Source: Bacilli bacterium (lineage in GTDB: Bacteria > Bacillota_I > Bacilli_A > RFN20 > CAG-826). Taken from it: 64,000 nucleotides of DNA. Of the stretch, positions 3,113 to 62,894 are shown piece after piece. How positions within the stretch are numbered: position 1 is the first letter of the stretch; every line of letters begins with the position of its first letter. A program made the translations under genes and the position numbers. The notes beneath the pieces were generated by a model. It saw only the letters and a program-made list of their open reading frames with translations. It made no database searches and was not told the origin of the DNA. The stretch is from assembly GCA_017477255.1 (NCBI GenBank), contig JAFUXB010000002.1, forward strand, positions 93,996-157,995, read 5' to 3'.

Positions 3113-3281
3113 TATGTCAATTGAACAAATGATGAAACGTATTGATGAGATTACTTTAAAGGTAAGTGATCCTAATATTTCACTTGAAGAAAGCATTAAA
3201 TTAGTCAAAGAAGCTAAAGAACTTATTGCAGAATGTGAAAAACGTTTAAATGAGTATAAGGAAGAAATAAAAGTAGATTAG
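3105..3281 (+). CDS. xseB: exodeoxyribonuclease VII small subunit (58 aa, below the ORF-track cutoff)
   Basis: The ATG at 3105 lies 8 nt after GGAGGA and overlaps the end of xseA. The translation is MNNMSIEQMMKRIDEITLKVSDPNISLEESIKLVKEAKELIAECEKRLNEYKEEIKVD. The TAG stop is at 3279-3281. Confidence 0.8.
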   Translation: MNNMSIEQMMKRIDEITLKVSDPNISLEESIKLVKEAKELIAECEKRLNEYKEEIKVD

Positions 3282-3317
3282 TAGTTTTCTAGTATATTAT
3301 TAGTAGTTAATAAGTAT
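3279..3317 (+). repeat. phased TAGTA-hexamer array A (4 units, 11-bp period)
   Basis: TAGTAG starts at 3279, TAGTAT at 3290, TAGTAG at 3301 and AAGTAT at 3312. The first unit contains the xseB stop codon. The last unit overlaps the dinB ATG. Confidence 0.85.
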
Positions 3318-4507: not shown

Positions 4508-5401
4508 ATGAATATACATGATGCAATCGACAATTTTATTCAATATAAATTAGTTGAAGAAGGACTAAATAAAGATTCAACGATTATTTCATATAAAGAA
4601 GATCTTGAAATATTTTTACGTTATTTTCCTGATATTAAAGATACAAATCAGTTAACTGCCGATGATGTATCTAATTTTACTTACGAGCAATCTTTAAATG
4701 ATTTATCAGCATCAACAATATCTAGAAGAATTTCGACATTAACTAATTTCTTTAAATTTTTAGAAAGTGAAGGAATTGAAAGTGATATTGTTCACGAAGT
4801 GGTTGTTCCTAAAAAAGAAAAACATATTCCAACTTTTTTAACTTTTGAAGAAATTAAATTATTATTAAATGCTCCAAATGAAGAAAAGCGGTCAGAATTT
4901 CGCGATAAAGTCATGCTTTTAATGATGTATAGTTGTGGTCTTAGAGTTAGTGAACTTATTTCTTTAAGAAAAAATCAAATTAATTTCGAAGAAAAAATCG
5001 TTACTTTAAAAGGTAAAGGAAATAAAGAAAGATCAGTTCCAATTAATGATGTTGCTATTCAATATTTATATAAATATTTTGACCTTTTAAAGGAAAAGAA
5101 GGCATTGAATCGATATAAATACTTATTTTATAGTAAGAAAAATCCTGAAAATGAACATGTTACTCGTCAATTTTTCTTCGAGCAAATTAAAAAATATGCT
5201 TATAAAGCAGGAATTGAAAAAGAAATTTCACCACACTCATTAAGACATAGTTTTGCAACACATTTACTTGAAAATGGAGCAGATTTAAGAGCAGTGCAAG
5301 AATTATTAGGTCATACTAATATTGAAACAACACAAATTTATACTCATTTATCATCACTTAAAGTTATTGAAACAATTGATTTGTATTCAAAGAAAAAATA
5401 A
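4508..5401 (+). CDS. xerD: site-specific tyrosine recombinase XerD type
   Basis: The C-terminal catalytic region is HSLRHSFATHLLENGADLRAVQELLGHTNIETTQIYTH. The gene is adjacent to deoB, as ripX/xerD is in B. subtilis. The XerC versus XerD assignment rests on context only. Confidence 0.75.
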   Translation: MNIHDAIDNFIQYKLVEEGLNKDSTIISYKEDLEIFLRYFPDIKDTNQLTADDVSNFTYEQSLNDLSASTISRRISTLTNFFKFLESEGIESDIVHEVVVPKKEKHIPTFLTFEEIKLLLNAPNEEKRSEFRDKVMLLMMYSCGLRVSELISLRKNQINFEEKIVTLKGKGNKERSVPINDVAIQYLYKYFDLLKEKKALNRYKYLFYSKKNPENEHVTRQFFFEQIKKYAYKAGIEKEISPHSLRHSFATHLLENGADLRAVQELLGHTNIETTQIYTHLSSLKVIETIDLYSKKK

Positions 5402-6913: not shown

Positions 6914-7417
6914 ATGAAAAAAGAGATTATTTACAAAGTAGAGTACGATTTAAACAACAAAATTCAGAGTCAAATCGAATGGGCTGATAATTTTTTACGT
7001 AATTTTCAAATTGGAGATATTGAGCTAAAAGTTGGTCAAATTGTTTTATACAAAGAATTTTCGAAATATTTGAATATATTTTTGGGATTAAGATATGGAA
7101 TTGTTTTAGACAAAGAAATTGGCGATCAAAACAATGTGATTATTTGCCCATTAGAAATTGAGACCGTTGATAGAATTTATCCAAACGGAGTTGATATTGG
7201 AAGAATTTATGAGATAGCAAACGATAATACATGCTTGGCAATGGTCTCAAATATTAAAAAGATTTCATACATGGACATCACAAATGATGGCGAAATTTTA
7301 AATAAAAAAATCTATCTTCCTGATGAATCAGTGAAGATAATTGTCGACATTTATCGTAAATTTATGCTTAAAATCTGTGGAAAATATATCAACACTAAAA
7401 AAATTAACTATTCGTAA
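6914..7417 (+). CDS. hypothetical protein (orphan) with a possible PemK/MazF-like SH3-barrel pattern
   Basis: A 167-aa ORF with no Shine-Dalgarno, lying between the deoB terminator and the dif site. The pattern VGQIVLY...LRYGIVL...NVIICPL...TCLAMVSNIKKISYMDI resembles the MazF/PemK core. This was not verified. Confidence 0.55.
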   Translation: MKKEIIYKVEYDLNNKIQSQIEWADNFLRNFQIGDIELKVGQIVLYKEFSKYLNIFLGLRYGIVLDKEIGDQNNVIICPLEIETVDRIYPNGVDIGRIYEIANDNTCLAMVSNIKKISYMDITNDGEILNKKIYLPDESVKIIVDIYRKFMLKICGKYINTKKINYS

Positions 7418-7428
7418 AAAGTGCGTTT

Positions 7429-7445
7429 TAGTAGATTTTTAGTAG
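7429..7445 (+). repeat. phased TAGTAG array F (2 units)
   Basis: TAGTAG starts at 7429 and 7440, reading TAGTAGATTTTTAGTAGAT. Confidence 0.7.
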
Positions 7446-7546: not shown

Positions 7547-7574
7547 ACTTAACATAATAAATATTATACGAAGT
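7547..7574. other. dif: candidate dif site (XerC/XerD chromosome dimer resolution site)
   Basis: The site reads ACTTAACATAA-TAAATA-TTATACGAAGT. Its reverse complement ACTTCGTATAA-TATTTA-TTATGTTAAGT matches B. subtilis dif (ACTTCCTAGAA-TATATA-TTATGTAAACT) at about 23/28 positions. It matches the E. coli XerD arm TTATGTTAAAT at 10/11. It lies at the + to - gene-orientation switch, 2 kb from xerD. Confidence 0.75.
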
Positions 7575-9057: not shown

Positions 9058-10183
9058 TTACTACTTTTCTACATCCTTCGTAGACGTAGACTCCTTTTGG
9101 TACATAAATTCTAAATGTTTGATTTGATCCTTTAAAACTAATCCAACCAAGACCAGAAATACCAATATCACGATATCCTGATTCATCGATTATGAAGTCA
9201 TAAGCATCAAAATCGTTCATGTTATAGAAATTATTACTACATGGAACAATATTTCTTTTTTGTAAGATGTGTTTTAAATGATTAAGACCTGAATATTGTC
9301 TAAACTTAAGTTCTACACCTTTAGCAAAATATGTTTTGATTAAAGTTGTTTTTCCTTTAAAAAGTTCGATTACAGCGAGTCCACCAATAGCTATGGAGCC
9401 ACCTTTTAATAAAACACCATCTTGAGGAACAACAGCTTTTTTAGGAGTAATAACTCTTTGAACTGATGGTTCTACTTTTGAGTAAAGACTGTTATGAATA
9501 TCGGTTCCTGGAAGTTCAAAAATAAAGTTTTTATTTGAAATAGGAATCTTATAACCTTGTAATGATGTTCCTTTGAATTGTTCTAAGCTGATTGGCATAT
9601 CAGAAACGTTTTTAATACGTTTCATAAGTTCAGTAATTAATGTACTCTTACCACTTATGCTTGCACCTAAGAAATAAACATTACGGTTTTTAGCTTGTTT
9701 AATGATTTTTTCATACATTAAATCTAAGTTGTAATCTGTATTTGATGAAACTAAAACTATGTCTTTAACGCTTAAACCAGTTAAAGATAATCTTTCGTGA
9801 ACATAGTTAATTAATTCGTTTTCATCAGCTTTTTTAGGAAGTAAGTCACGTTTATTTGCAACTACTATTACATCTAAATCTTTGATTACTTCGATTAATT
9901 TTGAAATGAAGCTTCCTTCAAAACTAAACAAATCGATAACGTAAACAATTAAATCGTTGTTTGTAACTGCTTTATCTAAAATCTTTTTGTAGTCTTCATC
10001 AAATGATGGGAGATATGGATGTTCATTAAAGCCTTCGTTTTTATAGCAATTATTACACAATAAAAGCCCACGAGGATATTTATTCATAATTTCTGGTGAA
10101 ATATAACCCTCGCTTAAAGGATCTTCGGTTTGTAAAATTGCACCACAACGATAACATCTAGAAATTTTATTTAATTCTGCCAT
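9047..10183 (-). CDS. yqeH: ribosome biogenesis GTPase YqeH
   Basis: An N-terminal CxxC...CxxC zinc finger is followed by a circularly permuted GTPase (NKRDLL ... GASISGKST). Confidence 0.85.
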   Translation of the reverse strand: MAELNKISRCYRCGAILQTEDPLSEGYISPEIMNKYPRGLLLCNNCYKNEGFNEHPYLPSFDEDYKKILDKAVTNNDLIVYVIDLFSFEGSFISKLIEVIKDLDVIVVANKRDLLPKKADENELINYVHERLSLTGLSVKDIVLVSSNTDYNLDLMYEKIIKQAKNRNVYFLGASISGKSTLITELMKRIKNVSDMPISLEQFKGTSLQGYKIPISNKNFIFELPGTDIHNSLYSKVEPSVQRVITPKKAVVPQDGVLLKGGSIAIGGLAVIELFKGKTTLIKTYFAKGVELKFRQYSGLNHLKHILQKRNIVPCSNNFYNMNDFDAYDFIIDESGYRDIGISGLGWISFKGSNQTFRIYVPKGVYVYEGCRKVVNVK

Positions 10184-10700
10184 AAATTTCCCTCCAATCG
10201 ATTAAAAGACCATTAGATTTATATTTTTTTCTTCTCATCATATCAATCCAACGTAAGAATTTCGTAATAAATTGGTCGCCTGGCCATAATTTTTCAGTTA
10301 AAATACAGCGAATTCCGACCTTTTTACAAACTTTTACATCAGTTAATAACTGATCACCTACCATTATAACATAATCAGTATCAGTATTTAGTGATTTCAC
10401 AAATTTTTTTAATTTGTGAGCAAAAGGTTTGCCCATTCTATACAAAAACTCAACTTCACATTCATCAGCATATGTTTTTACACGTTTATAATTATTATTT
10501 GAAATAATTATAGGCTTGATGCCTCTATTTTTGATTTCTCGTATATAGTTTTTAGCTCTTTCACTAGGCGTTTTATCTTTGTGTGTATCTAAAGTATTGT
10601 CCAAATCTAGCAATAAATATTTAATTCCAATTTTAACAAAAAAATCAGGATCAATATCGTATAAATTTAATGCATGTGCATATGGAACTAAATCGCTCAT
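10167..10700 (-). CDS. yqeG: YqeG-family HAD-IIIA phosphatase
   Basis: Motifs are LLLDLDNTL and GDQLLTDV, and the gene is first in the yqe cluster. No Shine-Dalgarno is present. Confidence 0.8.
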   Translation of the reverse strand: MSDLVPYAHALNLYDIDPDFFVKIGIKYLLLDLDNTLDTHKDKTPSERAKNYIREIKNRGIKPIIISNNNYKRVKTYADECEVEFLYRMGKPFAHKLKKFVKSLNTDTDYVIMVGDQLLTDVKVCKKVGIRCILTEKLWPGDQFITKFLRWIDMMRRKKYKSNGLLIDWREIYGRIK

Positions 10701-10701
10701 A

Positions 10702-10740
10702 ATACTTAAAATATACTAATAATCTACTAATTAATTACTA
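10702..10740 (-). repeat. phased TAGTA-hexamer array C (4 units, 11-bp period)
   Basis: The + strand units ATACTT, ATACTA, CTACTA and TTACTA start at 10702, 10713, 10724 and 10735. On the - strand this reads TAGTAA-N5-TAGTAG-N5-TAGTAT-N5-AAGTAT-T-ATG(yqeG). Confidence 0.85.
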
Positions 10741-10747
10741 ATTGGAA

Positions 10748-13357
10748 TTAATCTCCCATATCATCGAATATTGAGATTTGTTCATACTCAACATCTTTTT
10801 CAGGGACATCTTCAGCCTCTTCAGTAAATAAGTTGATTGGTTTGTTAGTTGCTCTTTCAACAGGTTCTTCTTCGATTGTATTCTCATCGATATGTTGAAC
10901 AGTTTCTGTAAAGACATCACAGATTTTTAATTTATCGTTGAATTCAAGATTCTTACGACACATTTTGTCCATTGGTGTTAAATGTAAATCGTTAATATTT
11001 AATTCAATGATTGAGTTGTCTGACATTAAAGCATTTAAAGTTAAAGCTTCAGCACGTTTGCTTATCTTATTAATATAGGCAATATCGTGTGGCTCGCTCT
11101 TAAATGATTTAAAGATGACTTGAGTTCTACCTAATCTTTGAGTTAATTCAAGGTTAGATTTATCAAATACACGATACATTCCGCGATCTGTGATAATGAT
11201 AAGTTTGCCTTTTTCTTCTTTTCTGTAAGAGAAAACGCCACAAACTGTGCTATTTCTTAATGTAGAAATTGATTTTACACCACTAGTTTTTAAGCCTGTA
11301 GCTGTAATTTCACTTTCATTAAAGAATGTACCAAGACCATTTTTAGCTACAATGAATAAATCACTATTACCATTTGCAATGCAAACATCAGTAACAAAGT
11401 CATTTTTCATGAGTTTCATGCATTGAATTGGTTTGTTATATTTGGTGACATAAAATTCTTTTAATGGAGTCTTTTTAATTTGACCATTAGCACTAACAAA
11501 GACTATATTAACTTTCTTGTTAAAGTCTTTAACAATGAATGTTTTAATAATTTTTTCATTCATTGGAACAGTACAAATTGAGTTAATGTGCTTACCTTCA
11601 TCTTTCCATTTTCCTTCAGAGAATTCATGGACAGGCAAGAATAAACAATTACCTTTGTCAGTAAAAGCTAAGACGTAATCGGCAGTATTTGCAACAGCTT
11701 GAAGAACAATTGTATCGCCTTCTTTTGTTCCTGGAAGCATGCCATTACTTGCTTTATATGATTTAAGTGAACTTCTTTTTGCATAACCAGCTTTAGTTAA
11801 AACAATGTAAACATCTTCTTTTAAGATTAAATCACGTTTACTAATTGAAACTTCTTGGCTATCTTCTTGTTCAATAATTTCAGTTCTTCTATCAACACCA
11901 TATTTATCTGAAATTTCTTTTAAATCCTTAATAATGATCTTTCTAAGTTTCTTTTCATCACTTAAAATTTCATTAAATTCACTAATTGATTTTTCAAGAT
12001 TTGCTTTTTCATTTAAATATATAGTGATATCTGCATTTGATAATCTATAAAGATGCATCATAACAATGGCTTCTGATTGTTCTTCAGTAAATCCATATTT
12101 TGCAATTAAGTTATCTTTTGCATCGCGTTTATCTTTACTGTGTCTAATTAATTCAACGACTTCTTCGATGATATTGACAGCTTTAATTAAACCATCAACG
12201 ATGTGTAATCTATTTTTAGCAATTTCGACATCGTATTTAGTTCTTCTAGTTATAACATCGATTTGATGTGCTATATATGTATCGAGATAATCGAGTAAAG
12301 TTAAAGTTTTTGGTCTATTATCAGAAATAGCAACAATATTTGCACTATATCCAACTTTAAGTTGAGTTTTATTAAATAAGTAAGTTAAAACTTTGTTTGG
12401 ATCAGCTTCTTTTTTAAGAGCAACTGAAATTTTAATTTCTTCTCCAGCTGATTCATCAAGAACTTCTAAAATACCATCGATTTCTTTACTCTTCATAATT
12501 TTATCGATGCTATGGACTAATTCTTGTTTATTAACTTTATAAGGAATTTCAGAAATAATTAATTCATTTTGTGATTTTCCTTCAACGATATTAACTTTAC
12601 TAGCAATTTCAATTCTTCCTTTACCAGTTAAATAAATATCTTTTAAACCTTGAGAATTATAAATAATTCCACCAGTTGGGAAATCTGGACCTTTAACTAT
12701 TTCCATTAATTCTTCAATTGTGCAGTGTTGATGAGCAATTCTATAAATGGTTGCTTCAATCAATTCTTTTAAATTGTGTGGAGGAATTTCAGTTGCAATT
12801 GCAACAGCGATACCTTCACTACCATTTAAGAATAAATTAGGGAATCTAGAAGGCAAAACAATTGGTTCTAATTCTGTATCATCAAAATTAAGAGTCATAT
12901 CAACTGTATCTTTTTCTAAATCTTTAACAAGATTCATTGCGAATTCGTTGAGTTTTGCTTCTGTATATCTATATGCAGCTGCAGGATCGTTATCAATACT
13001 ACCATTATTTCCTTGGAATTTAATTAAAGGCATATTCATTTTCCAAGGTTGTGACATTCTAACTAATGCATCATAAATTGAAGTATCGCCATGTGGGTGA
13101 AGTTTACCCATAACAGCACCAACGATTGTAGCGCATTTTTTAGTTGGTTTATCAAATGTATTGCCATTTTGATACATTGAAAAAATAATTCTTCTTTGAA
13201 CTGGTTTTAAACCATCTCTAGCATCAGGAATTGCTCTATCTTGAATGACATATTTTGCATAAACTGCATATCTATCACTCATTACAAAGTCTAATGATTG
13301 ATGTTGAATATTTTCGATGAAATCAGGGGTATCATCAATAATTTTCTTTTTAGCCAT
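10748..13357 (-). CDS. parC: DNA topoisomerase IV subunit A
   Basis: An 869-aa ORF with the motifs DGLKPVQRRI, HPHGD and GNNGSIDNDPAAAYRYTE, which is the ParC-type rather than the GyrA-type signature. No GyrA box is present. It is paired with parE upstream. Confidence 0.8.
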   Translation of the reverse strand: MAKKKIIDDTPDFIENIQHQSLDFVMSDRYAVYAKYVIQDRAIPDARDGLKPVQRRIIFSMYQNGNTFDKPTKKCATIVGAVMGKLHPHGDTSIYDALVRMSQPWKMNMPLIKFQGNNGSIDNDPAAAYRYTEAKLNEFAMNLVKDLEKDTVDMTLNFDDTELEPIVLPSRFPNLFLNGSEGIAVAIATEIPPHNLKELIEATIYRIAHQHCTIEELMEIVKGPDFPTGGIIYNSQGLKDIYLTGKGRIEIASKVNIVEGKSQNELIISEIPYKVNKQELVHSIDKIMKSKEIDGILEVLDESAGEEIKISVALKKEADPNKVLTYLFNKTQLKVGYSANIVAISDNRPKTLTLLDYLDTYIAHQIDVITRRTKYDVEIAKNRLHIVDGLIKAVNIIEEVVELIRHSKDKRDAKDNLIAKYGFTEEQSEAIVMMHLYRLSNADITIYLNEKANLEKSISEFNEILSDEKKLRKIIIKDLKEISDKYGVDRRTEIIEQEDSQEVSISKRDLILKEDVYIVLTKAGYAKRSSLKSYKASNGMLPGTKEGDTIVLQAVANTADYVLAFTDKGNCLFLPVHEFSEGKWKDEGKHINSICTVPMNEKIIKTFIVKDFNKKVNIVFVSANGQIKKTPLKEFYVTKYNKPIQCMKLMKNDFVTDVCIANGNSDLFIVAKNGLGTFFNESEITATGLKTSGVKSISTLRNSTVCGVFSYRKEEKGKLIIITDRGMYRVFDKSNLELTQRLGRTQVIFKSFKSEPHDIAYINKISKRAEALTLNALMSDNSIIELNINDLHLTPMDKMCRKNLEFNDKLKICDVFTETVQHIDENTIEEEPVERATNKPINLFTEEAEDVPEKDVEYEQISIFDDMGD

Positions 13358-15288
13358 TATTTAATAACCTCCTTAATAAATTCATCTTCTTCATTGAAAT
13401 CAATATTTTCTTCAACCCATTTCTTTCTTAAATCTGAGTTATTACCCATTAATGTTGAAATTTCTTTTGCAACATTTAAAGGATCATCGATATTAACTTT
13501 AATTAATAATCTATGACGTGGGTCCATTGTTGTATAACGTAATTGGTCTGGGTTCATTTCACCTAAACCTTTATATCTGTTAATTTTATAACCTCTACCC
13601 ACTTTTTCTTTACAAATTTCAAGTTCTCTATCATCCCAAGCATATTCTTGGATATAGCCACTACCTTGTTCTTTATATACTCTATATAAAGGAGGTACAG
13701 CAACATAAACATAACCATTAACAATTAATGGTCTCATATAATGATAGAAGAAAGTTAAAAGCAAAGTTTGAATGTGAGCTCCATCAGTATCAGCATCAGT
13801 CATGATAATGATTTTTCCATAATGTGAGTCTTCAATATCAAAATTTTGTCCATAACCAGCACCAATTGTGTTGATTAATGTACTAATTTCTTCATTTTTT
13901 AAGAGTTTATCGACTGAAATTGAATCAGTATTTAATGGTTTACCTCTTAAAGGAAGGATTGCTTGATATAAAGGATTTCTTCCTTTTTTAGCACTTCCAC
14001 CAGCTGAATCACCCTCAACGATGAAAAGTTCATTTTTAGAATAATCTTTTCCTTGAGCAGGTGTTAATTTATCACTTAAAAGCAAAGTTTCTTTTTGCTT
14101 TTTATTTTTTCTCATTTCATCTTTTGCTTTTCTTGCAGCAATTCTTGCAGCTTGGCTATCAATACATTTTTTAATTAAATTAACTGCAAATTCCTTATTT
14201 TCATTTAAAAAATAAGTAAATTGAGAATAAATTAAGTTATTTACTGCACTTAAAGCTTGAGGTGTTCCAAGTTTTCCTTTTGTTTGACCTTCAAATTCAA
14301 GAATACTTTCTGGCATTTTTACACTAATGATGGCAGTTAAACCTTCACGAATATCAGCACCTTCTAATTTTTCTTTTGATTTTAATAAATTATTAGATTC
14401 AGCAAAATCATTAACTGCTTTTGTAATACCAATTCTAAAACCAGTTTCGTGAGTTCCACCATCTCTAGTTCTAACGTTATTAACATAACTATAAATTGTT
14501 TCGTTATAATCGCCAGTACAATATTGAAAAGCAATTTCGATATCCATTGTATTTACTTTATCTTCAAAAGTAATTACAGGACCTAAACTATTTTTATTTG
14601 CGTTAATTGTTTCGATATATTCTTTTAAACCGTTTTCATAATAAAACTCAGTTTCTTGATTAGTTCTTTCATCTTTTAAAACAAATTTAACTTTTTTAAG
14701 TAAGAAAGCACTTTCTTGTAAGTGGGAAGCAATTGTGTCCCATTTAAAATCTACAGTTGAAAAAATCTTTTTATCTGGTTTAAAAGTAACCATTGATCCA
14801 TGTTTAGTTGTATTTCCTAAAACTTCTAATGGTACAGCTAAATTTCCATTATTTTCAAATCTAATGTGGTAAACTTTTTGATTTTTATATACGACTACAT
14901 CGCAGAATTCGCTTAAAGCATTGGTAACACTACTACCAACACCATGAAGACCACCACTAGATTTATAAGCATCTTCATTAAATTTACCACCACTATGTAA
15001 GGTAGTAAAAATAAGTTGTATTGCTGGGATTCCAGTACTTTTATGTATATCAACAGGGATTCCACGTCCTTCATCAATTACGGATAAGCTTCCATCTTTA
15101 CGAATAATAACTGTAATTTTATTACCAAAGCCATTTAAAGCTTCGTCAACAGCATTATCAACAATTTCCCATACTAAATGATGAAGTCCATATGCATTTG
15201 TACTTCCAATATACATACCAGGTCTTTTAATTACGCCTTGTAAACCTGTTAAATATTCAATATTACTTGCATTATATTCTTTATTCAT
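13357..15288 (-). CDS. parE: DNA topoisomerase IV subunit B
   Basis: A 643-aa GHKL ATPase plus TOPRIM protein (KRPGMYIGS, EGDSAGG, PLRGK). Its stop overlaps the parC start. Confidence 0.8.
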   Translation of the reverse strand: MNKEYNASNIEYLTGLQGVIKRPGMYIGSTNAYGLHHLVWEIVDNAVDEALNGFGNKITVIIRKDGSLSVIDEGRGIPVDIHKSTGIPAIQLIFTTLHSGGKFNEDAYKSSGGLHGVGSSVTNALSEFCDVVVYKNQKVYHIRFENNGNLAVPLEVLGNTTKHGSMVTFKPDKKIFSTVDFKWDTIASHLQESAFLLKKVKFVLKDERTNQETEFYYENGLKEYIETINANKNSLGPVITFEDKVNTMDIEIAFQYCTGDYNETIYSYVNNVRTRDGGTHETGFRIGITKAVNDFAESNNLLKSKEKLEGADIREGLTAIISVKMPESILEFEGQTKGKLGTPQALSAVNNLIYSQFTYFLNENKEFAVNLIKKCIDSQAARIAARKAKDEMRKNKKQKETLLLSDKLTPAQGKDYSKNELFIVEGDSAGGSAKKGRNPLYQAILPLRGKPLNTDSISVDKLLKNEEISTLINTIGAGYGQNFDIEDSHYGKIIIMTDADTDGAHIQTLLLTFFYHYMRPLIVNGYVYVAVPPLYRVYKEQGSGYIQEYAWDDRELEICKEKVGRGYKINRYKGLGEMNPDQLRYTTMDPRHRLLIKVNIDDPLNVAKEISTLMGNNSDLRKKWVEENIDFNEEDEFIKEVIK

Positions 15289-17096: not shown

Positions 17097-18134
17097 ATGG
17101 GACGTGTTAATACTAAGAAAATAAACATAGGAAATATTACTATTGGTGGAGAAAATAAGGTTTTAATCCAATCAATGTGTAATATAAAAACAAGCAATAT
17201 TAACGATGTTATCAAACAAATTAATGATTGCACTTTTTATGATGCTTCTTTAATGCGTGTTAGTGTTTTAGATTTTGAAGATGCTAAAGCAATTAAAGAA
17301 ATTGTTAAAAATATTAAAATTCCTTTAGTTGCTGATATTCATTTTAATTACAAATTAGCAATTGAAGCTATTAAAAACGGGGCTAAAAAAATTAGAATTA
17401 ATCCTGGAAATTTAACAAATTTAGACGAATTAAAAGAAATTATTAAATGTGCTAAAGAATATAAAGTTGCAATTCGAATTGGAATTAATTCTGGTTCTTT
17501 AAATAAAAAATATGTTGGTAACGATGAACCTGAGTATTTAAACTTAGTAAATTCGGCACTAGATTACATTAAAATCTTTGAAGAAAACGAATTCTTTGAT
17601 ATTGTAGTCAGTTTAAAAAGTTCTAATCCAATCGAAACTTTTAAAGCTTATACATATTTTGATTCAATATCAAACTACCCACTTCATATTGGTGTAACTG
17701 AATCTGGATTTGATGAGGTCGGAATTATTAGAAGCGTTTCAGCTTTATCACCACTTTTACTTAATGGAATCGGTGATACTATAAGAATTTCTTTAAGTGG
17801 AGATCCTATTAAGGAAGTTATAACTTGTAAAAGACTTTTACATGATTTAGGACTTTATCCAAATTATCCTACTATAATTTGTTGTCCTACTTGTGGAAGA
17901 TGCCAAGTTGATGTTAAACCTTTAGCTAAAAAAATACTTGATTACATGGAGCAAAATAACATTTATAAGACAGTTGCTGTAATGGGCTGTGTTGTAAATG
18001 GAATTGGTGAAGGGAAAAATGCTGATATTGGATTAGCTGGTGGAAACGGCTTCTTCATTTTATTTAAAAATGGTCAAGAAATAAAAAAAGTCTCACAAGA
18101 GGAGGCTTTTGATGAATTAATTAAATATCTTTAA
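17097..18134 (+). CDS. ispG: 4-hydroxy-3-methylbut-2-en-1-yl diphosphate synthase (MEP pathway)
   Basis: A 345-aa ORF with GcpE patterns (IGGENKVLIQSM, RINPGN, CPTCGR). TATAAT lies 7 nt before the ATG and there is no Shine-Dalgarno. Confidence 0.9.
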   Translation: MGRVNTKKINIGNITIGGENKVLIQSMCNIKTSNINDVIKQINDCTFYDASLMRVSVLDFEDAKAIKEIVKNIKIPLVADIHFNYKLAIEAIKNGAKKIRINPGNLTNLDELKEIIKCAKEYKVAIRIGINSGSLNKKYVGNDEPEYLNLVNSALDYIKIFEENEFFDIVVSLKSSNPIETFKAYTYFDSISNYPLHIGVTESGFDEVGIIRSVSALSPLLLNGIGDTIRISLSGDPIKEVITCKRLLHDLGLYPNYPTIICCPTCGRCQVDVKPLAKKILDYMEQNNIYKTVAVMGCVVNGIGEGKNADIGLAGGNGFFILFKNGQEIKKVSQEEAFDELIKYL

Positions 18135-20305: not shown

Positions 20306-20333
20306 ATACTAATAATATACTAAAAATCTACTA
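20306..20333 (-). repeat. phased TAGTA-hexamer array B (3 units)
   Basis: The + strand units ATACTA, ATACTA and CTACTA start at 20306, 20317 and 20328. The - strand reads TAGTAG-N5-TAGTAT-N5-TAGTAT. The first unit contains the nif3 TAG stop. The array shares the exact 16-mer TAGTATATTATTAGTA with array A. Confidence 0.85.
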
Positions 20334-22995: not shown

Positions 22996-24820
22996 AATTA
23001 CCTCCCAAGTTATTATTCTTCCTTTTATTTCTTGTTGATTCGTATAACTTAGCTCTAGTTATTGGATCTTGGTCTTTTGCATTTTGTAAGACCTGTTTAT
23101 CTCTAACTTTAGCTCTTTCATCTTTTAAAGATTCAATCGTAATTTCTAGTTCTTCTTTACTATAAGGAACTGTACGATCATTTTCATCTAATGCAATCTC
23201 AGCAATATTGTTTGAGATGGAATCTGAATTTTCAATATTGTTCGAAGATACATAAGATAATACTTCACTATATTCAATTTTTTGATTTTCAATATTAAGT
23301 GAATCTAAATATTGAATTAATAAACTAGCAATTTCTCTATATTTTAAATCAGGCAAATAAACGTTATTTTCACTAACAAACTTAATTGCCTCACTATTCA
23401 CTAGCATGTATTTGATAATTTTTCTTTCAAGAGCTTCAACTTTGTTAGTTTTAGTCGCTTCTTTAGTAAAATTATCAAGCCATTCATCATCATCAACTTG
23501 TGATTTTCTTTTTCTTTCAATAGCTTCGACTAATAAATTTTTATCAAATCCAGTAAGTCTAACTAATTTATTGATGTAATCGTTTCTATCAAATGATGAA
23601 TTTAATGATGCGATGTATGAACTCATTTCTGAGACAAGTTTTTTCTTTCCATTTAGTGAGTCTAAATTAACTCTTTTTGAATGGAAATTAATTAACCATT
23701 CACCGCTATCAATTAAGTTATTAGCATATTTCAATAATGCGTCAGCACCATAAGAAGTTAAGATTTCATCGCAATCTTTTTCTTTAAATGTGACATTATT
23801 ATTAACTAAGCTATATTTAATTCCTGCTGCATTTAACTTAGGAATTATTGATTTCATTGTATTTTCTTGTCCTGGGTTATCTAAATCTAGGCAAACTCTA
23901 ACTTCACAGTTAAGTGATCTAAGTTCTTTTACGTGATCATTAGTCATTGCTGTACCCATTAAAGCTACAGCTGATTTAATTCCAACCCTATATAAGGCAA
24001 TAACATCCATGAAACCTTCAAGAAGATAAATATAGCCAGTTTGTTTAGCTTCTTTTGCTGCATTATTAAGGTTATAAAGTATTTTTCCTTTATCAAATAC
24101 TTCAGTAGATTCGGTATTAATATATTTTGCTGTGTCATCATTTTTAATTCTTCTAGCACTAAATCCGACTACACGGCCAATTTTATCAAATAATGGGAAG
24201 ATAACTCTTCCTGCATTATTATCACGAATTGTCATGTTAACTGTATTGATTCTACCAATACCTGTTCTTTCAATTGTTTTGATAGCAATGTTTTTTGATT
24301 TTAAATAATTAATAATATTTAAGCCATCATCCATTGAGTAACCAATACCAAAATATTTGATTACATCGTCATTTAATCCTCTGTTATAAAGATAGTTGAG
24401 ACCTTCTTTACCATAATCTTTTCCTTGATATAAACTTGCTTTATAGAAACTCTGAATATTTTCTAAGCAAGAATAAACTGGATCAAGAATTGGGTTTGTA
24501 GTTTTCTTGTGTTCTAATTCTTTTAATTGTGGAATATCAATACCACAAATATCACAAACTACTTTTGCAGCCTCAATTCGAGGAATTTTATCATATAATT
24601 CAATAAATCTAATTGCGTCTCCACCTGTATGACATGAAAAGCAATTAAAAATTTTCTTTTCAGAACTTATATGCATTGATGGACTGTGATCATCATGAAA
24701 AGGACATACTGAAACGAAGTCTCTTCCTTTTTTTGATACTTGAATTCTGGAACGGACTACATCAACTATATCTGCTTGTTGAACGATTGCATCGTATATT
24801 TCTTTTCTATCAACTGCCAT
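22976..24820 (-). CDS. dnaG: DNA primase
   Basis: It has a zinc finger ([10 protein letters not shown]...CFSC) and a TOPRIM domain (EGFMDV). It lies upstream of sigA. Confidence 0.9.
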
Positions 24821-33419: not shown

Positions 33420-33819
33420 CTTCGTTTGCCTTTAATAACTCTTGAAAAACTGTATAACTAATGAATCCATTTTTGTATAAGGAATTAATTAGTTCATTTT
33501 TAGTAGATTTATAGTAGTTTTCAAGTATGTTTTGAAGTTTTACTTCTATCTGATCTGTATTAATCATCTTTAATTTTCTATCATACAAATAGAAAATGTG
33601 ATCAATATATAAATCGTTATTTACAATAAGCATAATGCATAAATTTTTATCATAGTATGCTTTAGTTGTCTTATCATTTCCAACATATAAAAGACTAGAA
33701 ACATTAGTCATTTTCTCTCCTTCTTTTTGCATATGCTCATAAGGACTATTAAATTTTTGAATGTTGTTTCTATATTTAGCTAATATTTTAAAAAATGTCT
33801 TATCCATATTAATTGTCAA
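33412..33819 (-). CDS. hypothetical protein (135 aa)
   Basis: The ORF overlaps both neighbours by a few nt, an operon-style arrangement. No motif was recognised. Confidence 0.5.
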   Translation of the reverse strand: MTINMDKTFFKILAKYRNNIQKFNSPYEHMQKEGEKMTNVSSLLYVGNDKTTKAYYDKNLCIMLIVNNDLYIDHIFYLYDRKLKMINTDQIEVKLQNILENYYKSTKNELINSLYKNGFISYTVFQELLKANEDE

Positions 33820-40635: not shown

Positions 40636-40663
40636 TAGTAGTTTTTCAGTAGATATTTAGTAA
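40636..40663 (+). repeat. phased TAGTA-hexamer array G (3 units), inverted relative to the flanking genes
   Basis: TAGTAG starts at 40636, CAGTAG at 40647 and TAGTAA at 40658. The array fills the 36-nt hemW-PHP spacer. Confidence 0.8.
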
Positions 40664-40664
40664 A

Positions 40665-41792
40665 TTACAAGTTGATAAGATTAAAAATCTTTAATAAAAT
40701 TGAGTCCATTATAGCAATTCCATCATGGGTTAAACACAATGAACCCTTATTAATTATAGCAAGTTTTTTATTAATTAAAAGTTGTATATAGTCTTTTGCT
40801 ACTTCTAATAAATCTAATCCAAATCTTGCATTAAATTCTTCTAAATTTAAGCCCCATTTTGTTCTTAAATTAAGCATTAAATACTCTTCAATTTGTTGAT
40901 CTTTTGTTAGTTCTTCTTCAATAGATAATCTATCTTTATGTTCTAGATATTTGTTTAAATTACTAGTGTTTGTGTATCGTTTATTATCAATATATCCTGA
41001 TGCTCCAGCACCTAATCCAACGTAGTTACCACACTTCCAATAATTAATGTTATGCTTACTATATTTTCCATTTTTAGCAAAATTACTAACTTCATAATTA
41101 TCATATCCATGATCTTTTAGATATGAGCATATATAATCGTATAATAATCGATTTTGATCTTCATCAATCTCTTTTATGTGTTTATTAAAGAAAATAGTGC
41201 CGGGATTAACAGTTAATGAATAAATTGATATATGAGAGCAATTTAATGAGACAAATTTTTTTAAATTTTCTTTAAGTACTTCTATATTTTCATTTGGTAA
41301 CCCATAAATTAGATCAATATTGATGTTTTTAATATACTTTTTAACTTTTTTAATTAATGATTTAAAATCAATGCTTTTTCTACCAAGCATTTTTAAAGTA
41401 TCAGTATTAAAACTTTGAATACCTATTGAAATTCTATTTATACCGTATTTTTTAAAGAGATTTAGCTTTTCATCATCTAAATCTTCAGGATTAGCTTCAA
41501 TTGTAAATTCTGTGCCCTTTTTAGCTAATTTTTGACACTCTATAAGTATTTTTTCTAAGTTTTCATTACTTAAACATGATGGAGTTCCTCCACCAATATA
41601 AATTGTATTAAACTTAAAAAAACTAATTTGAGTTTTCTTAATATCTTCGATTAATTCGTTGATATATTGATCTTCAAAATTAGTTTTCTTTAAAAATTTT
41701 GTAAAGTCACAATAAGGACAGATGCTATTACAAAAAGGAATATGAATATATAAACTATTTATTTTCCTTTTGTTCATTTTCATATTGTTCAA
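40665..41792 (-). CDS. hemW: radical SAM heme chaperone HemW (HemN-like)
   Basis: It carries LYIHIPFCNSICPYCDF and sits in the lepA-hemN position. The exact start is uncertain (Met 1, 4 or 6). Confidence 0.85.
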   Translation of the reverse strand: MNNMKMNKRKINSLYIHIPFCNSICPYCDFTKFLKKTNFEDQYINELIEDIKKTQISFFKFNTIYIGGGTPSCLSNENLEKILIECQKLAKKGTEFTIEANPEDLDDEKLNLFKKYGINRISIGIQSFNTDTLKMLGRKSIDFKSLIKKVKKYIKNINIDLIYGLPNENIEVLKENLKKFVSLNCSHISIYSLTVNPGTIFFNKHIKEIDEDQNRLLYDYICSYLKDHGYDNYEVSNFAKNGKYSKHNINYWKCGNYVGLGAGASGYIDNKRYTNTSNLNKYLEHKDRLSIEEELTKDQQIEEYLMLNLRTKWGLNLEEFNARFGLDLLEVAKDYIQLLINKKLAIINKGSLCLTHDGIAIMDSILLKIFNLINL

Positions 41793-42003
41793 ATTGCTTT
41801 TTAGTTTCTTCGTCTTCTACATCTTCCAAATATCTTTCGACATTTTCTTTTGCAATTTGTTTTTCATCCATTTCTGGTTTTTCTTCCTTAAATAAGAATT
41901 TTTTAACTAATAAAATAGCTAATACAATAATACCAAAAATAATGACTAATCCAACTAAGATTACTACAGGATTTTTTAACCATTCATTTGCTAATGTAAT
42001 CAT
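41755..42003 (-). CDS. small single-pass membrane protein with an acidic tail
   Basis: An 82-aa ORF with one transmembrane helix (VVILVGLVIIFGIIVLAILLV) and an E/K-rich C-terminus. Confidence 0.55.
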   Translation of the reverse strand: MITLANEWLKNPVVILVGLVIIFGIIVLAILLVKKFLFKEEKPEMDEKQIAKENVERYLEDVEDEETKKQFEQYENEQKENK

Positions 42004-42009
42004 AAACTA

Positions 42010-43383
42010 TTATCCTTTCTTAACTGGAGTGTAGATATATTTATTTTTAAGTGGTTCTTTTCTATAGAATCCTAAATATACTAATGTATCCATGCTTGTA
42101 CGGGCAGTTTCATAAGCACAGCCTAATTCTCTCTTAAATTGAGCAATTGTGTATTTCATGCCAATTGTACAATGTCTTGCATAGAAATAAGCTTGAGCTC
42201 TAGATAATTCTGGATGTAATTCAAGCAAATGAGTTTCTAATTTATTTGCTTCTTCTTCATTTAATCCATCTGGAACTTCAGATATAGCAATATTTTTGTT
42301 GTAATTGACGTTTGAATCATCAATTTTTTCAACATATCTTTCAACAACCTTAATTTCTTCTTTTGGTTCTTCATTTGATACTTGATTAACAACAGGTTCA
42401 GTTGAATATGTTTCTTCAGCAATTTCATCTACTTTTGATGAACTTAAGATTTCATTTAAATCTTCGATGCAATGCTCAAATTTCTTTAATATATAGTTTA
42501 AGAAATAAGTTAAATCTAAAGTTTTTTGGCTTTCCAAAATAAAGCTTTCAAATTGTTCTTTTTCAAGTAATAAACTTTCAGCATTTAAATAGATTGCTAA
42601 TTCACCAAGATCATTACGTGCAAGTATTTCTTTAAATAATAAGACGCTCATTTCTTCACTAAATGCTTCGAATGGAACGACATAATAGAAATAATAAAGA
42701 GCACATGTTGCTTTAACAAATAATGAATTAGTGCTAGTTTCCAAGAAATTGAATAACGAATCCATTGAAGATTCAATTGTATTACTTGGAACACCTAAAT
42801 AAAGTTTATTAATAACTACTTTATTTAATGAATTTTCAATTTCAGTAGTTCTATAAAATTCAGTTAAATCATCAGTTCCTAATAATGAACTATAAGTTAA
42901 ACCTAGAAATTCATCTTTTAAGCTACAATCATAGTTTTTAGCTAAATTTTTAATTGTTCTAAAGTATTTATTTAATAACATTGCTTCTGGTGAAAGTAAG
43001 CTAATGTCTTCACTAATTATTCTATCAATTGTTGCGCTATCAACATTGATTTTATATTTTTGAGCAACCGTTCTTAAAATTCTATTTAAAGCTCTTGATT
43101 CAAAATTATGTTTACCATTTCTGCCGAGTTTAGTGTAATTAAGTAAAATTTTAATTAATTTTCTATCAATTTGGTTAACTCTTTCATTGATTGAAGGTGC
43201 TAAACATACACTATAATTTGAATTATTAACATGCTTTAAACTTAAAACGACTTGGAAATTACTTCTGTATTCTAAAACTTGATCCCAAATATTATCAACA
43301 ATTGGGACTTTCATTTGTCTAATGACATCTTGCTTTGTGGCATACATGTCGTTAGTAAATCTTGCGCCTATATTGTTTGCCAT
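42010..43383 (-). CDS. hypothetical protein (457 aa), possibly a degenerate Fic-like core plus a C-terminal winged helix
   Basis: It has its own promoter and a GAGGT ribosome-binding site. The segment VVPFEAFSEEMSVLLFKEIL lies where a Fic HxFx(D/E)GNGRxxR motif would be, but it lacks the catalytic residues. The C-terminus looks like a winged helix-turn-helix. This was not verified. Confidence 0.5.
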   Translation of the reverse strand: MANNIGARFTNDMYATKQDVIRQMKVPIVDNIWDQVLEYRSNFQVVLSLKHVNNSNYSVCLAPSINERVNQIDRKLIKILLNYTKLGRNGKHNFESRALNRILRTVAQKYKINVDSATIDRIISEDISLLSPEAMLLNKYFRTIKNLAKNYDCSLKDEFLGLTYSSLLGTDDLTEFYRTTEIENSLNKVVINKLYLGVPSNTIESSMDSLFNFLETSTNSLFVKATCALYYFYYVVPFEAFSEEMSVLLFKEILARNDLGELAIYLNAESLLLEKEQFESFILESQKTLDLTYFLNYILKKFEHCIEDLNEILSSSKVDEIAEETYSTEPVVNQVSNEEPKEEIKVVERYVEKIDDSNVNYNKNIAISEVPDGLNEEEANKLETHLLELHPELSRAQAYFYARHCTIGMKYTIAQFKRELGCAYETARTSMDTLVYLGFYRKEPLKNKYIYTPVKKG

Positions 43384-43438: not shown

Positions 43439-43466
43439 CTACTAAAAAAATACTAAATAATTACTA
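43439..43466 (-). repeat. phased TAGTA-hexamer array D (3 units, possibly a 4th degenerate unit)
   Basis: The + strand units CTACTA, ATACTA and TTACTA start at 43439, 43450 and 43461, with CTATCA at 43472. The array lies just upstream of the -35 box of the promoter at 43404-43431. Confidence 0.8.
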
Positions 43467-43541: not shown

Positions 43542-43928
43542 TTAATAACGCATTGATGCTGCTAAAACGCCTGTAGCAATTAAAACTCCGTAGATAATTC
43601 CGACGACAACACTAATGGCAACTTCAACAACAAATCCGATGATAGCGCCTTTTTTGAGCTTTGGTTTATTGATTACTAATCCAATAATAAGACCTATTAA
43701 ACCAAGGAAGAATCCTAAGCAGAAACCACCAGCAAATGAACCTTCATCAACATAAACTGGTTGTCTTGGTGCTTGATTTAAATCTTCTCCTCTATTAATT
43801 GGATTATTTGCAGCTTCATCTAAAGCTGCAGTTTTTTCTGCAGGACTTAATTTGTACCCACATTTTGGACAAGCATCTAATTGGCTTGACATAACGCTTT
43901 TACATTCTGGACATCTAATTAAAGCCAT
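43542..43928 (-). CDS. zinc-ribbon membrane protein
   Basis: The N-terminus is CPECK...CPKCG. The C-terminus has two glycine-rich transmembrane helices. Confidence 0.6.
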   Translation of the reverse strand: MALIRCPECKSVMSSQLDACPKCGYKLSPAEKTAALDEAANNPINRGEDLNQAPRQPVYVDEGSFAGGFCLGFFLGLIGLIIGLVINKPKLKKGAIIGFVVEVAISVVVGIIYGVLIATGVLAASMRY

Positions 43929-62855: not shown

Positions 62856-62894
62856 TAGTATATTGTTAGTAGTTTTTTAGTAGTTTTTTAGTAG
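62856..62894 (+). repeat. phased TAGTA-hexamer array E (4 units, exact 11-bp period)
   Basis: TAGTAT starts at 62856, and TAGTAG at 62867, 62878 and 62889, with T5 spacers. Confidence 0.9.

Follow-up and report, generated by a model that had tools for sequence, protein, structure and literature searches.

The 64,000-nt stretch of contig JAFUXB010000002.1 analysed here (the window) comes from the metagenome assembly of a member of the Bacilli (0.84 Mb, 28% GC, about 53% complete), and the element in question is a short direct-repeat array in the spacer between parC and a yqeG-like gene on its minus strand. The parC gene encodes topoisomerase IV subunit A (Pfam DNA_topoisoIV, E = 8e-149) and ends in a TAA codon at 10748..10750; the yqeG-like gene (10167..10700) encodes a HAD phosphatase of 177 aa (Pfam HAD families), and its ATG at 10700-10698 is supported by tblastn alignments to relatives that start at residue 1-4. 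Read on the minus strand, the array (10702..10740) consists of four units, TAGTAA (10740-10735), TAGTAG (10729-10724), TAGTAT (10718-10713) and AAGTAT (10707-10702), separated by 5 nt each, which gives an exact 11-bp period (period 11 also in Tandem Repeats Finder). It begins 7 nt past the parC stop and runs up to the yqeG start because the whole spacer is only 47 nt long, with a single T left between AAGTAT and the ATG.

In these respects, namely the four TAGTA-type units, the 5-nt gaps, the distance from the parC stop and the adjacency to the ATG, the sequence reads as claimed in a preliminary description of the locus. That description also stated that the spacer lacks a Shine-Dalgarno (SD) sequence, and no GGAG-like motif was found in its 47 nt; likewise, the hexamer TATATT is present 9 nt before the yqeG ATG (10710..10715, minus strand), where it matches the -10 consensus at 5/6 positions, is made up of the third array unit and its spacer, and may represent a short-leader promoter. 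A consensus scan of positions 10000-13600 predicted no full sigma-70 promoter and no terminator in the spacer.

The further proposal that this array and one before dinB share unit order and register relative to an SD-less start codon was not borne out. The xseB-dinB array (3279..3316, plus strand), which starts on the xseB stop, reads TAGTAG, TAGTAT, TAGTAG, AAGTAT, so that only the last unit agrees with that at yqeG, and the dinB ATG overlaps this last unit (AAGT followed directly by ATG) whereas the yqeG ATG starts 1 nt after AAGTAT, a difference of 3 nt. A terminal AAGTA is a common variant of array ends, found in 11 first and 9 last units among 68 arrays. When the arrays of nine contigs (this genome and seven relatives, with simple, crude calls of open reading frames, ORFs) were aligned on the next ATG, no preferred offset appeared, sense arrays lying -13, -2, -1, 2, 5, 5, 11, 21, 22, 43 and up to 305 nt from the next start. 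Of the argument that two such loci speak against chance, the part that concerns the array stands, the array itself being non-random, but a start-codon module with a preferred register is unsupported.

The yqeG array belongs to a family that we define operationally by at least 2-3 TAGTA-type cores with an exact 11-bp period and AT-rich spacers, and whose members consist of 2-5 direct repeats of (T)TAGTA(G/T/A). Allowing one mismatch at most, the window contains 22 occurrences of the pattern TAGTA-N6-TAGTA compared to 7.1 ± 2.5 in shuffled sequences, and only the 11-bp period is enriched (18 chains versus 0-5 for each other period in the range 6-19). Across this genome the three-unit pattern has 17 matches, compared to none for a reversed control. 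In the unit profile the TAGTA core is invariant (positions 2-4 at 98-99%) and the spacer merely AT-rich, and the exact 11-bp spacing places the units on one face of the helix.

With respect to genes, the arrays are anchored to the upstream stop codon and not to the next ATG. For the 33 arrays located between co-directional genes, the median gap is 6 nt from the upstream stop and 59 nt to the next start (Wilcoxon p = 9e-5); in several the first TAG doubles as the stop of the preceding gene, and 8 of the 33 are antisense. About 80% of arrays are sense to the gene ending beside them, and 21 of 58 intergenic arrays (36%) lie between convergent gene ends, where only 10% of all spacers are found. 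Strong arrays would be forced into non-coding DNA because at least three TTAGTA units at 11 bp create stops in all frames of both strands, and they would hug stop codons because promoters must be spared.

The distribution of the arrays along the chromosome is centred on a dif-like site. This 28-mer, with two 11-nt arms and a 6-nt centre (7547..7574, plus strand), lies in a convergent spacer at which the GC skew flips from + to -, 2 kb from a xerD-like gene for a XerD-type recombinase (4508-5401, plus strand); a conserved copy is found at the skew flip of 7 relatives, and in further genomes. Contig C2 is the only one of the assembly with a + to - flip, and genes converge there. Judging from the sequence, the dif-like site with its skew flip is the mark of the replication terminus; the origin could not be placed because this 53%-complete assembly yielded no true match to DnaA. 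Nearly all arrays of the genome lie on C2, between 42 and 157 kb, and about 20 of them cluster within ±60 kb of dif, as do 13 of 17 exact two-unit loci (binomial p = 1.5e-8). Going right from dif, the yqeG array is encountered first, at a distance of 3.1 kb, and is directed at dif.

The same clustering was observed in relatives, which are non-independent samples for this count as for the co-occurrence counts given below. In three of them (G014, G017 and G023) almost all matches are on the single contig that holds the skew flip and the conserved dif; in G011 all 12 of 12 are on the dif-carrying contig, and in G072, which belongs to a different genus, 20 of 23 fall at 142-248 kb of an 879-kb contig with dif at 184 kb. 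Genomes of other families (G026, G030, G033 and G036) have few arrays, at or near dif, and in G026, G030 and G036 these flank dif within about 0.3 kb in inverted orientation. Overall, the nearest array on each side of dif is directed toward it in 15 of 16 cases, whereas the orientation of outer arrays is mixed, with only about 63% pointing toward dif.

In this genome a two-unit array (7429..7444, plus strand) lies about 100 nt from dif and is directed at it, directly after a gene for a 167-aa protein, and the order of small gene, array, about 105-140 nt and dif is fixed in ten same-genus genomes. The conserved dif-proximal array is always about 105-140 nt beyond the arm of the TTATGTTAAGT type, which would correspond to the XerD-binding arm, going by E. 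coli dif. The GC-rich G124 and the closed genome G167 likewise have a two-unit array, at a distance of about 125-130 nt from this arm. In genomes of genus g20, repeat finding beside dif returned only unrelated short repeats, and the two-unit arrays were seen by direct reading. As a separate observation, G124, with its much higher GC content, has TACTA-N6-TACTA beside dif (C1:396200-397500) and a degenerate array before its homologue of the Fic-type gene described next; it is a useful natural control, such AT-rich words being rare there.

A candidate for the protein that binds the arrays is encoded between lepA and hemW (42010..43383, minus strand): a protein of 457 aa with a catalytically dead Fic fold and a winged helix at each terminus. 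On its own it has no match in Pfam, and 5 of 15 family members give weak Pfam matches to Fic. Its AlphaFold (AF2) model (predicted local distance difference test, pLDDT, 83.6) comprises an N-terminal winged-helix-like module, a helical core, a disordered linker of ~45 residues and a C-terminal winged helix, and the best Foldseek matches are Fic proteins of the SoFic class (8CIL, 3ZCN, 3EQX, 7CB8 and 4RGL). In all 15 aligned members the Fic motif HPFx[D/E]GNGRxxR is replaced by (K/V/N/R)P(F/M/Y/T)-x-x-(F/Y/Q)-x-(E/K)(E/D), with neither the histidine nor GNGR retained, while the C-terminal winged helix-turn-helix (wHTH) is near-invariant across families.

This protein and the arrays tend to occur together. 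Among 40 relatives, full-length homologues are present in 22 of 24 same-genus genomes, and of the genomes from other families precisely the four with clear arrays have one; seven genomes (families f2, f6, f8 and genus g15) with array counts at control level gave none, and families f4 and f5, with similarly control-level counts, have only distant, longer homologues. Across the order (150 genomes), the family occurs in 40/40 genomes of f1, 39/41 of f3, 30/31 of f7 and 1/11 of f2. Moreover, a three-unit array (43440..43466, minus strand) follows the lepA stop immediately and lies shortly before the -35 element of the Fic-wHTH gene promoter, which gives it the appearance of an autoregulatory site. 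All 15 of 15 genomes examined, drawn from three families, have an array in this place, ahead of the -35/-10 promoter. Given this promoter array and the co-occurrence with arrays, the Fic-wHTH protein is the likely binder, and base-specific, head-to-tail binding is suggested by the co-occurrence, the promoter array, the fold and conservation of the winged helix and the invariant TAGTA core together. Known terminus proteins were not found: RTP (PF02334) and Tus (PF05472) gave no match in this genome or five near-complete relatives, and MatP (PF06303) none in five relatives that are 96-99% complete. The Fic-wHTH gene is flanked in the lepA-hemW region by an 82-aa ORF (41755-42003, minus strand) with no convincing Pfam match and by a gene for a 128-aa protein (43542-43928, minus strand) with a zinc-ribbon match.

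Two other readings were rejected or put aside. The 167-aa protein encoded beside dif (6914-7417, plus strand), with an array directly after its stop, is fast-evolving and has no Pfam match; its AlphaFold model (pLDDT 75.7) matches MazF/PemK toxins in Foldseek (E from 1.5e-4), with a target-normalised template-modelling score of 0.64-0.70 among the top ten matches and an extra N-terminal helix, and no antitoxin-like ORF was noticed beside its gene. As a binder it was put aside, being found only in the same genus apart from one weak match outside and being absent from the dif spacer of the array-bearing genomes of other families. The second was a role of the repeats as FtsK-guiding words similar to FtsK-orienting polar sequences: single TAGTA words are only mildly strand-skewed (888 versus 654), whereas GAAGAAG is strongly so (477 versus 40). 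Contigs C3 (121 kb) and C5 (17 kb), all sampled 31-mers of which recur in C7 (158 kb), were excluded from these counts as duplicates; with such redundant contigs discounted, the unique length of the assembly is about 699 kb.

How yqeG itself is expressed was addressed by comparing its upstream region across 28 same-genus genomes. The gene lacks an SD in 24 of them, and a perfect TATAAT stands 6-8 nt before the ATG in 15, with TAAAAT in two more; in these TATAAT/TAAAAT genomes the sense array, where detected, follows parC immediately and is 46-105 nt away from the yqeG ATG. Five genomes, this one included, have a short spacer with no TATAAT and with an array that ends 2-19 nt from the ATG; four others have no array and a parC stop only 1-9 nt from the yqeG ATG. 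The distance from array to ATG thus ranges from 2 to 105 nt over the 28 genomes, and because this distance, the TATAAT and the very presence of the array vary, array and expression signals are, as far as such a comparison tells, separable modules. Two relatives have parC-yqeG spacers of 300-420 nt (G014 71328-71745 and G017 23685-23986) in which, by eye, the opposite strand seems to contain a small ORF; such long spacers are a further sign that this spacer is plastic in evolution.

In the genome studied here the candidate -10 elements of yqeG are TATATT at 9 nt and TATTTT (4/6) at 7 nt. The near-leaderless yqeG mRNA put forward in the preliminary description is plausible from the orthologues, with their frequent TATAAT and general lack of an SD, and such starts would be nothing unusual: an SD-like motif precedes only about half of genes of at least 150 aa, and -10-like hexamers are enriched 6-7 nt before starts on C2 (14 and 10 genes against a background of about 4), so that leaderless or SD-independent initiation seems common in the genus. 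The gene at 17097 (plus strand), for instance, has TATAAT 7 nt before its ATG, a leaderless-type start without an array. Among assembled metatranscriptome contigs, one covers yqeG and ends at 10716, 16 nt upstream of the ATG and inside the third unit, and none spans 10717-10809 between parC and yqeG, a weak observation, as absent cover proves nothing; these contigs are too weak to choose between a local start and read-through from parC.

We consider it probable that the yqeG array is a binding site of a terminus domain which fills a short spacer by chance, and that yqeG is expressed from a weak short-leader promoter reusing the array, by parC read-through, or by both. The contact between array and start codon looks incidental, because arrays follow stop codons and because, among the 28 genomes, the distance to yqeG varies or the array is missing. 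According to this proposal, a lineage-specific protein would bind the array head-to-tail and cooperatively, with one winged helix per unit; the binder would be a Fic fold stripped of its catalytic motif and endowed with a near-invariant C-terminal winged helix, and would also occupy the array at its own promoter. Bound arrays would mark the dif region. The oldest sites would be those flanking dif at about 100-140 bp and directed at it, and in this genus and a sister genus sites would have become numerous across roughly ±50-100 kb, lodged in the stop-proximal part of intergenic spacers, where promoters are left undisturbed. At yqeG, transcription may start at a weak promoter, short-leader or leaderless in type, for which the TATATT of the array is reused; alternatively or additionally, read-through from parC would be followed by SD-independent initiation on an AU-rich leader. 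While the array with its periodicity, its clustering around dif and the loss of the Fic motif can be read off directly, as can the co-occurrence, the promoter array and the fold of the model, we infer binding itself and the cellular role, which could be that of a terminus-domain organiser, a fork barrier or an Xer/FtsK accessory.

Several points weigh against this proposal. Among outer arrays, a mixture of about 63% orientation toward dif and about 80% gene-sense orientation fits neither a strict fork trap nor an orientation-free organiser, and much of the clustering within the genus could partly mirror shared synteny. Protein and arrays are paired on the strength of the promoter array and of their joint occurrence in genomes that are related to one another, and genus g20 has the protein but few three-unit arrays, so array number is not tied to its presence. 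The array may have a local effect on yqeG expression, given the five genomes in which it adjoins the ATG. Finally, with the genome only about 53% complete, arrays elsewhere could have escaped detection, although relatives at 94-99% completeness speak against this.

Of the alternatives, the one that fares best, though we regard it as unlikely, is that the protein-bound arrays are polar fork barriers forming a dif-centred trap like Ter/RTP or Ter/Tus, with the yqeG array as the innermost barrier on the right. Direct repeats are inherently polar, the nearest arrays on either side of dif are mutually inverted, and the niche appears open, with no RTP, Tus or MatP homologue found in the five near-complete relatives. 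The array at the promoter of the candidate binder also has a counterpart, since rtp and tus each have a ter site in their promoter region (PMC10331603). Outer arrays, however, lack the strict polarity of known traps, and where the two criteria conflict, array orientation follows the adjacent gene (G014 65907 and G023 28926). The density of about one array per 5-8 kb is also far above that of known traps.

Appreciably less probable is the original idea that the arrays are expression modules which fix a promoter and start in register with an SD-less ATG and so produce leaderless or near-leaderless dinB and yqeG mRNAs. Both spacers are indeed SD-less with arrays that reach the ATG; the xseB-dinB array is conserved in four of four same-genus genomes and abuts the ATG in three of these; TAGTAT and TATATT resemble -10 hexamers; and the RNA contig that ends inside the third unit is a weak hint in the same direction. 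The idea survives mainly because of the five genomes in which the array adjoins the yqeG ATG and no separate TATAAT is seen. It is contradicted by the lack of a preferred array-to-ATG offset, by the 3-nt shift between the dinB and yqeG registers and by the anchoring to upstream stops, and it does not accommodate the arrays between convergent gene ends, the antisense arrays or those flanking dif, where no gene starts. In most orthologues yqeG has a TATAAT to itself and the array stands 46-105 nt upstream, four others are array-less and coupled to parC, and leaderless-type starts such as that at 17097 do without an array. Nor does the idea explain why arrays are confined to the terminus region.

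We give marginally less credit still to a direct action on transcription, in which the arrays would serve as roadblock terminators or insulators, ending parC transcripts and shielding dif, or as an operator repressing the yqeG promoter. Their position a median of 6 nt after stops, mostly in the sense of the ending gene, and their enrichment in convergent spacers would suit a roadblock, as would the absence of a predicted intrinsic terminator after parC and, weakly, of RNA contigs bridging the parC-yqeG spacer. Genes end everywhere, yet arrays keep to the dif region; next to dif, arrays and intrinsic terminators can occur together (e.g. in G167); and arrays occur within operon-like runs such as xseB-dinB and parC-yqeG, where termination is not required because four relatives couple parC and yqeG directly. 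As for a protein-free origin, as intrinsically curved AT-rich DNA or as slippage products whose accumulation near the terminus would be mutational in cause, the T-rich spacers with their 11-bp phasing might bend the DNA and array copy number and position differ between species, but it is scarcely credible in view of the invariant TAGTA core within merely AT-rich spacers, a signature of base-specific recognition, the retention of core and 11-bp spacing beside dif in the GC-rich G124 and across families, and the co-occurrence with one protein family whose gene has an array at its promoter.

Terminus-domain sites bound by the dead-Fic protein, our preferred explanation, resemble several known systems in part. 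The matS/MatP system forms the Ter macrodomain in E. coli and relatives, and its sites are 13-bp palindromes bound by a dimer. In both cases a short motif recurs at many sites in a terminus region of about 10-15% of the chromosome centred on dif and almost nowhere else, and would mark this region for a protein of its own. The TAGTA arrays differ in being 2-5 direct repeats at 11 bp, in having innermost sites directed at dif and in their candidate binder, which combines a dead Fic fold and winged helices; a search of five relatives gave no MatP homologue. RTP is a winged-helix protein. With Ter/RTP of Bacillus subtilis and Ter/Tus of E. coli the arrays share the opposed orientation of the innermost sites round the terminus and a site at the promoter of the (candidate) binder, but not consistent polarity of the outer sites; they are multi-unit direct repeats, present at far more per kb, and no RTP or Tus homologue was found in the six genomes searched. 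The architecture also resembles that of OmpR/PhoB-family operators (hexamer-N5-hexamer, 11 bp), with direct repeats and a 5-nt AT-rich spacer on one helix face, a likeness that implies head-to-tail binding by winged helices. Here, however, the core differs, up to 5 units occur, the distribution follows chromosome position instead of a regulon, and the candidate binder is no response regulator; one PF00486 gene is present in the genome.

The binder itself is akin to SoFic-class (class II) Fic proteins, such as Shewanella SO_4266 (3EQX/3ZCN) and Coxiella Fic2 (8CIL), in which a helical Fic core is followed by a C-terminal wHTH (Foldseek E 4e-7 to 1e-5), and departs from them in the replaced catalytic His and GNGR, the extra N-terminal wHTH-like module, the ~45-residue disordered linker and an identity of only 10-14%. 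Leaderless mRNAs come from genes without an SD whose -10 element precedes the start codon by 6-8 nt, a geometry matched by the SD-less yqeG orthologues with TATAAT in 15 of 28 genomes; in the genome studied here, by contrast, the TATATT is at 9 nt and built from the array, and one RNA contig continues for 16 nt ahead of the ATG. A limited literature search returned nothing on TAGTA arrays or a Fic-wHTH terminus system, only unrelated papers, and a review of termination systems lists only the Tus and RTP traps (PMC10331603). The system is thus of a known kind, terminus-confined motifs with a dedicated protein, and new, as far as the reviewed literature shows, in fold, direct-repeat architecture and lineage.

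The remaining arrays of the window illustrate the range of settings. A three-unit array at 20307..20333 (minus strand) uses its first TAG as the upstream stop and is followed 21 nt later by an SD and start; a four-unit array with two degenerate units (33490..33527, plus strand) is antisense to minus-strand ORFs, lying inside them or where they meet, and ends in AAGTATG with no gene after it; a three-unit array (40636..40662, plus strand) is antisense to the flanking minus-strand genes and fills their spacer; and a four-unit array (62856..62893, plus strand) is located in a divergent spacer.

For annotation, the locus carries a warning that a conserved repeat beside a start codon need not be an expression signal: here the repeat would be positional, and the SD-less, probably leaderless yqeG start would be a separate feature, common across the genus. 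The arrays also make it easy to find the terminus by sequence where metagenome assemblies of the clade are fragmentary. To our knowledge, dedicated terminus-marking systems come from few lineages only, namely MatP/matS and Tus/Ter in enterobacteria and their relatives and RTP/Ter in Bacillus, and the arrays with their candidate binder may represent a testable third solution, derived from a retired Fic enzyme. Going further, we would venture only as a tentative and rather doubtful possibility that uncultured low-GC gut and rumen Bacilli have an undescribed terminus system in which a dead Fic protein polymerises on TAGTA arrays, inverted at dif and spread over ±50-100 kb in some genera, and takes the place of MatP, RTP and Tus with a fold and site architecture unrelated to theirs; occupancy of the yqeG array, which covers the sole promoter-like hexamer before the SD-less yqeG start, would then couple expression of the ribosome-assembly operon yqeG-yqeH-nadD-rsfS to the state of the terminus. 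The finding bears on how most small-genome Firmicutes-like bacteria may organise and terminate the dif region.

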